DNA of 31,103 nucleotides from Pedosphaera sp. (GTDB taxonomy: Bacteria; Verrucomicrobiota; Verrucomicrobiia; Limisphaerales; SIBH01). The stretch is from assembly GCA_031414955.1 (NCBI GenBank), contig JANOQV010000156.1:1-31103 (forward strand), read 5' to 3'. Within the stretch, counting starts at the first letter, position 1. Each line of letters begins with the position of its first letter. Position numbers: made by a program. Below are positions 12,001 through 18,000 of the stretch, piece by piece.

Positions 12001-15000
12001 AAATCAAGCTTCAGCAATGGGGCCGCGTCAAAGGTGTCGTGCGCGTCGGCGACCAGCCCTCTCCGGACGATTCCGTGCGCCTGCAAAAATGGCAGAGCAG
12101 CTACCCGGATCAGAATCACCAGCCCTCCATGCTGTCCTTCCAACTCAAGGCGGACATCGAGAGCGACGGTCAATTCCTCTACGACAAGGTGCCGCCCGGC
12201 GAACATCGACTCGCGCTCGAACATCGATTCCGCGAAAATCCAAACGAGGAAGCACCCTTAAGCCACGGGCGCCTCATCACCGTCAAACCGGGTGAGACCG
12301 TCGAGGTCACACTCGGCGGCAACGGTCGCCGCGTGACGGGGCGGGTGAAAATCTCCGGAGGCGAGCCGTCCGACGTGGATTGGAAACGCGACGTCCACAG
12401 GCTGATGCTCGTTCAGCCCGGCCAGCCTTCGCCCGCCCAGGCCCAGGGATTCAACGGGCAAGAATCGTTCATCAGTTTTTCACCGTTAATCAACCGGCAA
12501 GCGGTGGGTTCCATCGAAGAAATGCGCCAGCGTGAACGCGCCGACCGCACCTACGTGCTCGTCTTCGAGACCAACGGCACGTTCCGCGCCGACCACATCC
12601 CGCCCGGCAAATACCACCTGCGGCTGAACCCGACCGACCCCAACGACGACAATTATTCCCGCCGGCCCATCGGCAATTTGGGGCAGGAAATCCTCGTTCC
12701 CCAGGATGCCCAAGCGGCGGTCAATGCGGCTTTTGACCTCGGCGAATTGGAACTGACCATCCGCCCGCGCGTCAGGCTGGGCCGAGAAGTGCCACCCTTC
12801 GAGGCCAAGACCGCTGCGGGCAAGACGATCCAAGTTTCCAACCATCGCGGCACGAACGTGCTGCTCTACTTCTGGGGTCAGAGCGTGGGCTACAGCACCT
12901 ACGACGTGCAGACGCTCAAGCAATTCCAAGCCACTCACGGTGGCACCAATGGCAAGCTGATCATCTATGGCCTCAATCTGGACTCCGATCCAAAGCAAGC
13001 CGCGCAGTTCGCGCAACAACAGGGCATGAACTGGCCGCAGCTTTATCTTGGCGATTGGAACCAGACCAGCGTGCCCGGCATGTTCGGCCTGAACGGCAGC
13101 AGCGGTGCGGTGCTGATCGACGCGCAGGGCCGCCTCGCCGCCGGCCCGTTGCGCGGCACCCAGATGCGCAACACCGTGACCAACGCGCTGGAATAAACGG
13201 AGCGCGACGCACCGACGTCGCGCCAGGCATTCGATCAAAGTGGCCGTCTGGGCAAACCTGAAACCAACCTCCCGCTCGCAAGTCTCACGCGACGTCGGTG
13301 CGGCGCGCTCCCCCTCGTCGCAATCACCTCCGCACGGGTCGTTCGAGAATGACGCCCTGCGACTTGCCATCCAGTTGCTCGCGCACGGAGACGGCCCGGT
13401 TGCGGATGAACAGCTTGAGCTGATGCACAGGCCGATTTGCCCCTTGTGGGTTTCCAGTCGTCGTTCGCTCCACCTTCCTGTCGCTCACCGCTTGGTCAAA
13501 TTTTTCGAGGCGAAAATCTGATTCAGCCGCAATCGGTTCACGAATGATGGCGGCGAGTTCATCGATGCGATGGTTCAATTGATCGGGCACGAAAAGTCGC
13601 GTCGAGAAATCTTCGAGGCAGTTGCGATAGAGTTGCCGGAACTCCTCCACCGCCATGACACGCTCAAGGAAACGATGCCGGCCCACCCACGGATGCCAGA
13701 TGCTGGCCCGTTCGCGCTGCGCCGTGCTGCCGAGCAGGAAGAATCCGCCCCACGCCAGATCGAGATCCCACGGGATGAAGCCAAACTTGTTCGAGCGCGG
13801 GTCGAGATAGACGTAAAAGTTCTGGCCGTTCGACAAAAAGCTGTCGTAGCTGGACAGCAGCACCTCGCCCGCGAGGAAACGAGCGAACTCATCCAGGTCG
13901 AGAAAGTCAGTCAGCCGTGCGGCGAAATCCGTGTCGTCGGCCCATGACACCAACCGCGCAAACTCAATCACACGCTGCCGTTGCTCCGGCGTGGCCTTGG
14001 TTTTCAGATCGTAAACCGCCGCGTAGTTCGTCCAGTCGTCGCCCAGATGCTCGAAGATCTGGTAGATCACCGGCTTGAAGACGGGCGCAACCTTCGAGCC
14101 AAAATGCTCGGCGGCAAAAGCCCCGTTCACCGGCTCCACCAAGGCATAGAGGCCGAGCGGCTTCCGTGGCCACTTCCCGTCCACGCTCGCCGTCAGGTAA
14201 GCGTAAGCGGTGCGCGGTGCAGGCACGCCTGTGGCGCGAAAAAACTCATAGGCCAGCGTGTCGCTCAGGTAAGAACGATCATCAATGAGGTTGTGCAGGT
14301 TCAATTCATCGACCGCCCCGAGCTTCTGACCCAGGGCAAACTTGTTCAGGTCCACCTTGAAGGACTGCTTCGAGCCAGCGCTGGAACTGAGATACGTGCC
14401 GTTGCCTTTGAAGCGCGCGGCCACGTTCGTAAACCTCCGCCCGCCCATCTCGAACTCCGCCTGCGTCCAGTCGAAATCAAACCCCAGCACGCCCGCCAGG
14501 CCGCTGCGTTGCGACTCCGGATTGCGCAGCAGAATGGTGCCGTCGGGCTGAAGGAAATTCGGCAGGGGACCGAAGCGCCGCGGTTGAATCGCCTTCCATT
14601 GCTCACGCGTGAAGTGCAAGTGCGCGAGCCAGATGTTCGTGGTCTGGAAGAAATCCGAAGCGGTGCGAACGAGCGCCGCGTTGCGCTCCGGCGACATGCT
14701 GTTCGTCGGCCACGGGCGAGCCGGTTGGGCCAGACCGGGCACAGTTCGCGCCTCATGCCGCACGGACCAGAGGAGAAATGCCTTAAAGAACCGGCTATGG
14801 CCCGTGCGACCGTCGAGGCGCCACGCGGCCACCACCAGCAGGACAAAACACAGCAGCAGCGCCGGCACTCCGATGATCAGCCGACGCCGCCAGCGCGCCC
14901 AGGCCAGGACGCTCAAGGTGCGGCGGGCCAGTGGGAGCGACGGTCTCTTCCCAAATTTATCTTCGATGGAGCGTACGATGTCGAAGGCCAGGCCATCCGG

Positions 15001-18000
15001 CACGGGTGCCTCACCAGCCTCGACCAGCAGCGTGCGCGACAAAGTTTCGGCGTCCGCATCCTGGCCCACTCCACCCCGGCGCAGGAATTTGGAAAGCTTC
15101 CGGAGGCCCGCTGCCGTCCGCTGGCCGACGCGCCGCTCGCTGACCCGCAGGATTTGCGCGGATAGAGCCGGGCTGTGATGAAGAAAAATCTGCAATAAGA
15201 GGGCGTCGCGCTGCTTGGACGACAGCCGAGCCATCGCCGGGTCGAGTTTAGGGGCCATCCTCGTCCATAGATCCGTCCCCGGCGGAAGCGGCTCGCGGCG
15301 TCCGAAGATGAACCACCGTGGTCGTCGCGGCCTGAATCCTCCTGGGAGCTTGCGGCAGGCGATGGCCGTGACGTGATACAGCCAGCCCGCCAGAACATTC
15401 TTACCTCGCAAGCGCCGCGCACGACGGGCCAAAACCAGGAAGACCGCCTGCGTGACCTCCCCGGCGTGCCGCGCACTTTGCGTCCGTCGATACGCCGCCG
15501 CGAAGACAAAGGTCAGATACCGATCGACCAGCAGACGAAAGCTTCCGGGATTGGGGCGGCGCGCGGCCTCGAGACATTCTCGATCCGTTGGAAGGACTGG
15601 CGGAACGGCGCTCATGGCATTGGTGACACTTCGGCGGACTCTACCGAGCGACGCGACACACCATCAAGACGCCGGGTCCAGGAAAGGTGTTTTCAAAAAT
15701 GGAAGAACAGGGAGGGCGGACGAAGAAAGGCTGCGGAAATCGAAAACGAGAATCGCCGGGGCTGCCGCCGGCCCGGGAACAACCGGGCGGCGTGACTGGT
15801 CAGCCGACCTGGAGGGCAAAGCGGATCGCGGCCAACAAACCAAGGATCACGGAGACGGCGACCATTTCCCACATCGAGAAATCAAACCGGGCGATTCGAG
15901 ACATCATGGCAACTGGTAAGCAGCACGAGTGCCGAGCTTTTCCGTGCTGGGCTGAGGGGGGCTGCCGTCTGATTTTAGTACAGAGTGTCCAAGTTCCTGT
16001 CCTGAGCCTGAACACAACGGAAAGTCGAACGCTTCCATGGGTTTTCTCCAACTCATGCTGTGACGACCCGCACTGACCTGTTTTCCGTTTGAACTCGCTT
16101 CTGATTGGGCACACGCTGGGCGCGTCACACCGAAAGGAAAACTTTATGTCGCAGGCCATGATGGATCCGGAGCAGGTTCGGCGCTTTGCCGAGGAACTGC
16201 AGCGTTTCAACCGCGACCTCACGAACCGGATGGGTTCACTGCAAGCGCGTTTCGGCGCGCTGGGCGAATCCTGGCAGGATCAGGAACACACCAAGTTCTC
16301 CGATGAGTTCAAACAGACCGTGAAGGCGCTGAAGAAATTCGCCGAGATGGCCGACCAGCATGTCCCGTATCTGTTGCGCAAGGCGCAGCGCATCGAGGAA
16401 TACCTGAACCAGCGCTGATGAAGGCGTGCCGTCGCAAGTTGAAGGTTGGAAGTTGTAGGTTTGCCCGCCGGCAGATCGGTGACCTCCTTCCACTTTCAAC
16501 CTTCAACCTTCAACCTCGTTAACATGCCCGGAGCACACGTCACTTCGACCGAGGCCATCGAGTCTTTCCGCGCCAATCTTATCGTCTATCTGAGCAAGAC
16601 CCGTCCGATTCTCGAGGACGCCTGCGACGAAGTCGTCCGCACCCGGCAGTGGCTGCAGTCGGACCGGCGCATTCACTGGGAGAACCAATTGCGCAAGCGC
16701 ACGCGCCAACTGGAGGACGCCAACCAGGCTCTCTACAGCGCGCGGCTGGCCAATCTGCGCGAACCGACGATGGCCGAGCAGAATGCCGTGCTCCGGGCCA
16801 AACGCGCCCTCACCGAGGCGGAAGACAAGTTGAAGCGAATCAAACGCTGGATGATGGAGTTTGATCAACTCGTGGGGCCGCTGGTGAAACAACTGGAGCA
16901 ATTGCGCACGATGTTGTCGAACGACATGCCCAAGGCGGCGCTCCATCTCTCGCAGGTGCTCAAGACGCTCGAGGCGTACGCCAATGTAATTCCATCCGCA
17001 GCGTCCAACCCCGCACCGGCGGCGGAGGCCAAGAGTGACGAAGCCGCTGCGGAGGGTGGAACGAGTTTAGCGCCGGGGAAAATTTCATGAACATCAGCTC
17101 AAATGGAAAATTGCTGGCTGCGGCCACCAAGGATTTGTCCGTCCGGTGGAGCGAGACCACGGACGCCTGGAAAGACACCAAGGCCCGCGAGTTCGAGCAG
17201 CGCTACCTCGCGGAGCTGATCGCCAGCGTGGATCGGGCGGTGCCGGTTTTTGATGACCTCGACAAACTTGTCTCAAGAGTCAGGAGCGACTGTGAGTAGC
17301 CAGTTGACGGTGACGCAGACCACCGAACTGCTCGAAAGCCTCAAGGGCACCGTCCGTGACTTCGCCGCCGCCGAGGAGAAACTGGTGCGCGAATTCCGGG
17401 CCAAGAACGACGCGGCGCAAAAACGCTTCGAGGAAGACACGGTCGCACACGACGCGCAACTCACGGTGGAACTCAACGAGGCGGAGACGCTGGACGTCTC
17501 GGCAAAAAAGCGGGCGCAGTCCCGCCACGACCGGCGCAAGACGCGACTCGCGAAAGCCCTCAAGGCCAGCCACAAGACCGCGCTGGAGCGCATCGACAAC
17601 CAGGAAGGGCGCGTCAAATACCAGAGCCAGAAAGGACAGCTCGACACCAAACGCTGGCGCGTGGACACGCTGGCTCAGAACGACGCAACGCTGTTGGAGT
17701 TCCAGCAGCGTCTCGCCGAAAATCGCGCCACGTTTGCCGCTCTGGAGGAGCAGGCTCGGAAACTATTTCGCGGCTATGGGAAATTCCGTCGCGCCGTGGA
17801 CAAGGCTGACGTGCTCCCGAACACCGACTTTGCGCCCGACGAATACCAGTTGCTGGAAAAGCTCGGCCAGTTGCACAACCGCACCAGCGAAGACTTGGCC
17901 CGATTCAAGAAACGGTTCCTGCCCCTGCTCTTCCGCCTGCTGCCGCTCTGGCTGTTAACCGTGCTGATTCTTGCCGCCGGGGGCGGAGCCGTGCCGTTGC

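Follow-up and report, generated by a model that had tools for sequence, protein, structure and literature searches.

The design in which a sigma factor is joined through a membrane helix to a variable outer cargo is already described for ECF57, IutY and ECF48/52/53. According to the supplement of Casas-Pastor 2021 (PMC7826278), ECF57 of the Planctomycetes has about two membrane helices, and both its sigma2 and its sigma4 contain a Cys that is completely conserved. ECFs that capture extensions have been treated by Pinto and da Fonseca 2020 (PMC7671368). In IutY of Pseudomonas putida (ECF243) and ECF48/52/53 of Actinobacteria (PMC8999054), sigma, membrane helix and extracytoplasmic domain form one chain, from which active sigma is freed by proteolysis, as demonstrated for IutY. 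The IutY type is a sigma/anti-sigma hybrid, with an anti-sigma domain fused in between sigma4 and the membrane, and its sigma is set free by Prc/RseP. The sigma-like domain of PhyR (PMC8103513) keeps the ECF fold, with degenerate polymerase- and promoter-facing regions. In EcfP/PknT (ECF43), as presented in PMC8999054 and PMC8103513, an acid-poor DAED motif occurs alongside a kinase. For the CotH kinases, 10.1101/469122 gives the roles of the catalytic aspartates (B. subtilis D228 and D251) and of the adenine-stacking W245 (B. cereus).

The fusion gene and its family

The window is the whole stretch analysed, 31,103 nucleotides of contig JANOQV010000156.1 from Pedosphaera sp. Its gene P0001 (13324..15615, minus strand) starts with ATG, has no internal stops, and encodes 763 aa in which a pseudo-sigma, an extension, a membrane helix and a CotH kinase occur in one chain. 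The preliminary description had proposed exactly this joining of an ECF part, one helix and CotH, and the reading frame, Pfam and hydropathy agree with it. Pfam detects sigma and CotH domains only, without a receiver domain of the PhyR type: CotH is found at residues 401-742 (162.2 bits, gathering cut 23.8) and Sigma70_r2 at 29-84 (27.4 bits, just over the cut of 24). Sigma70_r4_2 at 127-174 (19.1 bits, cut 25.7) and the sigma factor profile TIGR02937 (33.1, cut 42.9) fall short; the caveat that the sigma domain scores below some cuts thus holds for these two, Sigma70_r2 passing narrowly. Sigma2 and sigma4 are present without sigma3, which is the layout of ECF group 4. The AF2 model of the protein has a mean pLDDT of 90.6; a single-sequence fold of residues 1-270 was poor (pLDDT 45.6) and was set aside.

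The fusion is a conserved protein of soil and water bacteria. A homology search gave 489 matches (469 had been counted earlier), the best 120 of which are 56-75% identical, mostly over the full length, and full-length members occur in 17 other genomes of 251, one of them ended by a contig edge. A chance fusion, which the earlier description had already discounted, or an assembly artefact is thereby rejected. The named relatives belong mostly to Verrucomicrobiota. A phylum-wide search at E 1e-60, with two candidates scored per genome and the own order sparsely sampled, found members in 2 of 401 genomes, a figure which refers to the genomes searched and does not mean absence from the phylum.

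No conserved operon was found among 25 clustered loci, and neither VTC, DUF4956, anti-sigma nor protease families appear in 44 scanned proteins (42 neighbours and two stand-alone CotH). No autoregulatory promoter or shared upstream motif was seen by eye in the 150 nt upstream at 19 loci, and no sigma70-type site was found. A weak terminator-like hairpin (13201..13224, minus strand) lies 100 nt downstream, between the fusion gene and the convergent gene at 9489-13196; the hairpin scan gave 7 hairpins versus 3.2 +/- 1.7 in shuffles.

The kinase domain and its membrane anchor

The CotH-family atypical kinase domain (residues 326-750; 13366..14640, minus strand), predicted to be periplasmic, has the CotH fold, and at E 1e-5 PF08757 is detected in 63 of 63 members. 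Its catalytic stretch (13765..13845, minus strand) was placed by alignment, with residue roles taken from 10.1101/469122, and contains D591, N599, W616 and D617, each kept in 121 of 121 sequences. The motif D..N..WDxD had been reported as kept, and indeed R401, G404, K420, D591, N599, W616, D617 and D619 are jointly retained in 119 of the best 120 of 489 matches. Judged from this alignment and the 23-residue spacing, without a direct B. subtilis alignment, D591 and D617 would be the equivalents of B. subtilis D228 and D251, and W616 that of B. cereus W245. For the second adenine-stacking aromatic (B. cereus Y142) the alignment is loose, F513 and the invariant K514 being the candidates. CotH-like kinases are greatly expanded in the genome, which holds 53 Pfam matches to them. 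To our knowledge, no substrate or phosphate donor has been described for such kinases outside Bacillus spores, and literature searches listed no paper reporting one.

A single transmembrane helix (246-264; 14824..14880, minus strand; KD 3.02) precedes the kinase and is predicted to be oriented N-in/C-out by the positive-inside rule, with a family mean of 7.0 K+R ahead of the helix and 1.7 beyond it. The hydrophobic helix formerly placed at 200-300 is present throughout: all 115 members of at least 720 aa have a 19-residue Kyte-Doolittle window of at least 1.6 at 240-270, while 1 of 115 has one at 182-240 and none at 268-300. Over the whole length, one such segment is found in 101 of 115 members and two in 14. 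The orientation is independently supported by the signal-peptide-like N-termini of the nearest stand-alone CotH relatives, and the kinase is accordingly predicted to sit on the outer face of the inner membrane. The following amphipathic helix (274-291; 14743..14796, minus strand; DSSP on the model; KD median 0.44, hydrophobic moment 0.59) probably lies on that face, as it appears too weakly hydrophobic for a second crossing. A two-helix topology with a cytoplasmic kinase was rejected on the lack of a second hydrophobic window at 268-300 in all 115 members. A "TN bias" confined to the part after the helix, cited earlier for the periplasmic location by a measure that was not stated, did not reappear when read as Thr+Asn content (family 7.0% before and 7.6% after; query 5.5 and 9.3), and it was set aside as topology evidence.

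The sigma-derived part

The sigma2-derived helical domain (10-88; 15352..15588, minus strand) keeps its fold and W78, the equivalent of sigmaE W73; position 3 of DAED is Gly and Arg84 is lost. Across 115 members, an acid at position 53 (E/D) is found in 108, W78, V/I82 and L69 are kept, and position 56, where the query has Gln, is Arg in 100. A sigma32 Gln-to-Arg mutant reportedly affects core binding; it carries no weight here. The DAED face is acid-poor, with one acid in 89 of 115 members versus two in most sister sigmas, and its third position is Ala in 52, Glu in 16, Gly in 15 and Thr in 10. The sigma2/sigma4 linker (89-115; 15271..15351, minus strand) has been rewritten into a basic, Trp-rich segment of low model confidence (pLDDT below 50 at 99-106): its net charge is +6.0 versus 0.0 in the sisters, and Trp per sequence, counted over 89-116, is 1.84 versus 0.08. 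The sigma4-derived helix-turn-helix (116-181; 15073..15270, minus strand), which is under the Pfam cut, lacks in the query the sister-conserved E151, K165, R169, E172 and R175. In the family its arginines are partly kept (R166 in 100 of 115, R169 in 80) and partly gained (R157 in 97, R162 in 106), and the base-reading position 164 varies freely, the commonest residue reaching only 21 of 115. The cytoplasmic extension (182-245; 14881..15072, minus strand), homologous to that of the sister sigmas, forms three helices in the AF2 model, and a basic amphipathic helix at its end continues into the membrane helix.

The sigma-derived domain has a net charge of +25. Genome-wide Arg drift as its source is ruled out, since the kinase domain is neutral and the genome's other ECFs range from -7 to +7. 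The retained sigma residues are largely hydrophobic core, and R56, C87, R162, R231 and R232 are fixed specifically in this family. Median identity within the family is 0.68 for sigma2, 0.52 for sigma4 and 0.69 for the kinase, and sigma2 dN is 0.09-0.15 at dS 0.74-0.97 (8 pairs; the pair L051/L005 was left out of the CotH dN, as L005 runs off the end of its contig). As it is as conserved as the kinase and has a low dN, sigma2 must do something. A predicted complex of sigma2 with a fragment of the genome's own beta-prime clamp scored 0.01, which weighs neither way.

Several observations run counter to regarding this part as a relic: the conservation and low dN of sigma2, the retention of W78, V/I82, L69, the acid at 53, R166 and R169, the Q56 of the query, and the nature of the comparison sisters, which are predicted sigmas and themselves already lack the equivalent of sigmaE N80.

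Descent, possible roles and relation to known systems

Relative to its sisters the sigma part is systematically remodelled, and in deeper members, which stand on long branches (0.9-1.45), it is further eroded; anchored relatives without it exist, such as the one at L004:5884-7506, all kinase motifs being kept. The 107 sister sigmas fall into 58 cargo clusters, with DUF3738 as cargo in 24 of 91; one intact sister, at G000 C271:2913-4586, is retained in the query genome, and at locus L046 a sister lies directly upstream of the fusion. A search of the ESM Atlas yielded nothing more specific than generic sigma clusters, from Verrucomicrobiota, Planctomycetota and Myxococcota. The trees suggest that a secreted CotH was acquired in a single capture by a membrane-anchored ECF module of a Verrucomicrobial ECF57-like group, that holoenzyme features were lost and the strong cationic shift arose on the stem of the fusion clade, and that sigma later eroded in several lineages. 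One deletion of sigma is certain, and two or more are probable. For the deep sigma-less clade, whose grouping with a sigma-bearing lineage has a support of only 85.3, the lack of sigma could be the ancestral state and not a derived one.

The explanation that seems slightly more likely than not is that of a CotH-type kinase which is anchored in the inner membrane, faces the periplasm and has an exapted sigma relic as its cytoplasmic part, the module probably no longer functioning as a sigma factor. By sequence rules, the uncleaved helix would insert N-in/C-out. The amphipathic helix would keep the kinase close to the outer face of that membrane, where, by analogy with Bacillus CotH, it may phosphorylate envelope targets, most likely proteins, with ATP/Mg. 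The folded cationic relic may bind polyanions, with anionic lipid, nucleic acid or polyphosphate as guesses at the ligand, and would position or tune the kinase without starting transcription. From the earlier picture of a sigma factor tethered to a kinase, the architecture, conservation, intact kinase site and N-in/C-out topology are retained; the implied working sigma is not, as the domain is remodelled, eroded and sometimes absent.

A working divergent ECF sigma, held at the membrane and freed by regulated intramembrane proteolysis as in the IutY/ECF57 model, would make the periplasmic CotH a sensor, whose autophosphorylation or ligand binding might, for example, expose the protein to a site-1 protease. 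This is unlikely: a domain of net +25 would have to dock on basic clamp helices, Q56 (present in the query), E52 and R84 are lost, the linker is rewritten, position 164 is variable, K165 and R169 are missing from the query, the kinase stays intact in eroded and sigma-less members, and the 19 upstream regions share no motif by eye. Quite unlikely is also that the cationic pseudo-sigma has evolved into a cytoplasmic sensor of polyphosphate, DNA or RNA which controls the periplasmic kinase through one helix; if true, it would mean inside-out signalling from a reversed outside-in ECF module, with a former transcription factor as input domain of an envelope kinase. The kept and newly gained HTH arginines, the retained fold, the example of PhyR as a degenerate mimic of sigma (PMC8103513), the intact sister in the genome and the upstream sister in L046 would suit a regulator other than an initiation factor, with the kinase as outside input: either a tethered DNA-binding protein using the sigma4 HTH like ToxR/CadC, or a PhyR-like decoy titrating an inhibitor of sister sigmas. 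We regard this as improbable, as recognition-helix positions differ among orthologues, sigma4 is conserved less than sigma2, no conserved anti-sigma neighbour occurs, and a decoy would be expected to resemble the sisters on its surface, yet the surface charge is reversed.

It is similarly doubtful that the relic is functionless, the anchor alone being important and sigma persisting as it is translated upstream of it, with selection purging only aggregation-prone variants. The repeated erosion and loss, the long deep branches and the mainly hydrophobic-core character of the kept residues fit such a view, but sigma2 dN is low, the five family-specific residues are fixed, the cationic shift is limited to the sigma domain and, clean deletion being evidently viable, most crown members nevertheless keep the domain. 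An EcfP-like switch in cis, in which a cytoplasmic kinase restores the missing negative charge by phosphorylating its own sigma, is suggested by the acid-poor DAED face, the fused kinase and the ECF43 precedent; it is very hard to credit, since one membrane helix separates the two domains, Thr occupies the acceptor position in only 10 of 115 members, and the nearest CotH relatives look secreted.

Taking the sigma part as an exapted relic, the clade shows every stage in the life of an ECF fusion, from the capture of a secreted enzyme through loss of sigma features and erosion to deletion, and it adds a second route to a pseudo-sigma besides PhyR. The clade is small, its conservation is strong, its proteins are anchored in the membrane, and the cytoplasmic domain is complete, partial or missing in different natural variants; this makes it a tractable system for studying how diderms phosphorylate targets beyond the cytoplasm. 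Caution is also advised in genomes of this kind, where annotated "sigma-70 family" fusions should not all be counted as regulators.

Compared with Bacillus CotH (PDB 5jd9/5jda; 10.1101/469122), the query kinase has about 20% identity and inserts near 345-380 and 715-732; it is membrane-anchored in a non-sporulating diderm, and its locus has no CotB/CotG-like neighbours. The acid-poor DAED motif alongside a kinase recalls EcfP/PknT, but in the fusion Ser/Thr is not conserved at the acceptor position, and the kinase, of the CotH type, belongs to the same chain and lies on the other side of the membrane. The PhyR domain is resembled in the kept fold and degenerate faces, a literature search on PhyR degeneracy giving no match; unlike PhyR, the fusion lacks a receiver domain, no NepR-like partner was found, and the domain is membrane-bound, strongly cationic and dispensable in relatives. 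IutY and ECF48/52/53 share the one-chain order and release an active sigma, whereas here holoenzyme features are missing from sigma and a kinase forms the outer domain. With ECF57 and the extension-capturing ECFs the fusion has in common an ECF core extended at the C-terminus by a membrane helix and a variable outer domain, the gain of its cargo through capture, and the lack of a conserved promoter motif or anti-sigma. It differs from ECF57 in belonging to Verrucomicrobiota, in having one helix (101 of 115) and not about two, in lacking the fully conserved Cys pair (any Cys in both domains in 48 of 115 members and 1 of 107 sisters), and in carrying as cargo an enzyme whose conservation exceeds that of sigma, the latter being degenerate and sometimes lost. 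What is new here is CotH as cargo, together with the decay of sigma.

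Membrane topology and the kinase domain

The fusion gene (13324-15615, minus strand) encodes a protein of 763 aa. The order of its domains, the single membrane helix and the intact kinase site are shown by sequence and models, which bears out the architecture given in the preliminary description; shown in the same way are the cationic, remodelled state of the sigma part and its loss in relatives. In all 115 ECF-CotH relatives of at least 720 aa (the family), a hydrophobic 19-mer lies within residues 240-270, against none at 268-300 and one at 182-240. Scanned end to end, 101 of these proteins have one hydrophobic segment and 14 have two. 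Lys and Arg together average 7.0 N-terminal to the helix and 1.7 C-terminal to it, which indicates an N-in/C-out orientation. The TN bias earlier offered as topological support, taken as Thr+Asn content, contributes little, at 7.0% before and 7.6% after the helix. The closest stand-alone CotH proteins (L006, L007, L106, and L107; 40-48% identity) have starts that by eye resemble signal peptides.

From alignment to 5jd9, together with the residue roles in 10.1101/469122, D591 is placed at B. subtilis D228, W616 at B. cereus W245, and D617 at B. subtilis D251, with the aspartates matched by spacing; no position was assignable there to the second adenine-stacking residue. All eight kinase-site residues occur together in 119 of 120 matches, and among the CotH-tree sequences the motif is intact in 33/33 sigma-bearing, 18/18 sigma-less, and 4/4 secreted forms. 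The CotH domain is predicted to be an active kinase.

Remodelling, erosion, and loss of the sigma part

With a cutoff of E 1e-10, residues 1-270 matched 5802 cluster representatives; they also matched 171 of the 251 genomes of the order. The matches span sigma2, sigma4, extension, and helix together. From 149 new representatives, removal of 6 CotH-bearing and 36 fragmentary or ambiguous rows left 107 sisters, which were picked for resemblance to the fusion and whose sigma function is predicted. Clustering of the sisters' outer parts gave 58 groups, with DUF3738, HEAT, and TPR among the domains.

M. tuberculosis SigE and AlgU served as alignment references for the sigma register. Gln56 is found in 2/115 family members versus 104/107 sisters (Arg56 in 100/115 of the family), an acid at DAED position 3 in 19 versus 72, Arg84 in 9 versus 93, and an acid at 151 in 7 versus 99; these comparisons are descriptive and carry no test, because the positions were picked once the alignment was seen. 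Pfam counts, net charge, and the tree are independent of that choice. In subsets of limited size, Pfam region 2 (E 1e-5) is recognized in 18/63 family members versus 90/91 sisters, and region 4 in 32/63 versus 91/91. Over residues 10-181, net charge averages +24.8 ± 3.9 in the family versus +5.1 ± 2.5 in the sisters; it is +26 in the protein studied here and -7 to +7 in 15 other ECFs of its genome, and the family's kinase domain averages +0.3. In the sigma tree, 30 family sigmas form one clade (support 1.0) nested among the sisters, with root-to-tip distances of 1.85 versus 1.05. The sigma2/sigma4 linker of the family carries a charge of +6 and is rich in Trp. In published work, the basic beta-prime clamp is contacted by the acidic DAED face (PMC8999054, PMC8103513), and ECF transcription is abolished by swapping in an unrelated linker (10.1101/534826).

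The kinase part has matches in 85/251 genomes. From 123 matches, 50 were examined (the top 30 and 20 chosen from ranks 31-61), and five added sequences complete a CotH tree of 55. Sigma fusions occur in at least 31/251 genomes, 18 from the order-wide search and 13 more via kinase-part matches. Anchored kinases form one clade (SH-aLRT 99.4), in which crown fusions score 109-180 bits against the sister profile and 14 eroded fusions 19-89 bits; the clade includes 17 sigma-less forms, and an eighteenth, L096, branches immediately beside it. The fusion sigmas tested, 32 in number, all group in a single clade versus 30 sisters (support 90.3); this grouping could be exaggerated by long branches and by similar composition. 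Gln56 occurs in 0/19 added deeper or divergent members. In L071 (= L004, L058) and P0273, the family's N-terminal residues are followed directly by the membrane helix; since both group with the sigma-bearing P0274 at 100/100, sigma loss in this lineage is secure. A six-frame scan that detected 4/4 controls found no sigma remnant at 17 sigma-less loci, L097 offering just 307 nt upstream. Depending on a node with support 85.3, the deep sigma-less clade would either have lost the sigma part independently or be ancestrally without it. L094 (G222:C12:2000-5500), a sigma-less clade member, has an N-terminus that by eye resembles the signal of a lipoprotein more than a signal anchor. In P0087, possibly a chimera, an unrelated secreted-type segment replaces sigma2.

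The crown family has acquired cysteines at 14, 87, 196, and 201 (in 86, 99, 83, and 90 of its 115 members), which the sisters almost entirely lack; the protein studied here carries only Cys 14 and 87. They are possibly a metal site, a redox site, or packing residues.

Roles considered for the sigma part

The earlier interpretation holds for the anchored fusion, the intact kinase site, and the N-in/C-out orientation; the working sigma factor that it implies is not supported, the module being cationic, remodelled, and lost in relatives. The family sigma appears demoted to a cationic anchor, and a kinase anchored by this relic is the reading we consider probable, if not strongly so. The kinase domain would sit in the periplasm and phosphorylate envelope targets in an ATP-dependent manner; the relic would form no holoenzyme and may bind polyanions.

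Several results count against a relic. Within the family, sigma2 (identity 0.68) is as conserved as the kinase (0.69), sigma4 standing at 0.52. In eight pairs with dS 0.74-0.97 (NG86), dN ranges over 0.09-0.15 in sigma2, 0.15-0.34 in sigma4, 0.17-0.72 in the linker, and 0.09-0.20 in CotH; one further pair of the 12 closest gives 0.39 for sigma2. W78, V/I82, and L69, counterparts of the sigmaE -10 pocket (PMC6648896), are retained, and most members also keep R166/R169 and an acid at 53; the protein studied here is one of the two with Gln56 and lacks K165 and R169. A working sigma released from the membrane is unlikely. A DNA-binding or decoy regulator and a functionless relic, which the conservation of sigma2 disfavors, are each quite improbable, and an in-cis phospho-switch is very improbable. 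The relic anchor, the DNA-binding or decoy regulator, and the functionless relic have in common that the sigma part is no initiation factor, and jointly this is held with good confidence.

Genome context and comparison with known ECF designs

No neighbour gene is conserved outside close relatives, and no promoter motif was seen upstream of family genes. Divergent from the fusion gene, at 16089-21179 (plus strand), this diderm genome has a type VII-like cluster coding for a WXG100 protein, a helical protein of 214 aa, and an FtsK/EccC-like ATPase of 1309 aa; the cluster was not seen next to family members at the other loci compared. An adjacent Mrr-type nuclease gene of lower GC (21189-22052, plus) is followed by a short PQQ-like propeller fragment (22062-22415, minus). 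The gene convergent with the fusion gene (9489-13196, plus) encodes a protein of 1235 aa that combines carboxypeptidase-regulatory repeats with a thioredoxin-like end, and it has no conserved position beside family genes; such domains are reported close to ECF57s3 in the PMC7826278 supplement. Another CotH protein, which looks unrelated to the first (745 aa; 7221-9458, minus), carries a chitobiase/Fn3-associated domain, and its kinase match is split.

The genome holds 53 CotH matches, many inside open frames of 2000-3300 aa, 52 sigma-2 matches, and one intact sister; with a family-built CotH profile, 8/14 matches have a hydrophobic N-terminal stretch. Elsewhere, the fusion is immediately preceded on the same strand by an intact sigma that carries a long extension (L046:5650-8070, plus), and a fusion gene is followed by another CotH whose start is signal-peptide-like (L045:6210-8078, plus). 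Family members L001, L002, and P0013 lie on short contigs, in records labelled non-Verrucomicrobiota, and are probably misbinned.

No paper on an ECF-CotH fusion was found in a literature search covering sources outside subscription journals. "CotH" and "PF08757" have no occurrence in the supplements of PMC7826278 (partial) and PMC7671368, the Pfam heat map in Fig. 3D of the latter being a place where CotH could be listed. Family and sisters have the same design as ECF57 (PMC7826278, supplement part 15) and match the cargo capture proposed in PMC7671368 (section 12). The Cys pair, phylum, and helix number of ECF57 are all absent from the family, which is therefore classed as ECF57-like and not as a member. 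The fusion is a variation on the known membrane-anchored ECF design, and its notable features are the apparent demotion of its sigma to a cationic anchor and the kinase cargo.
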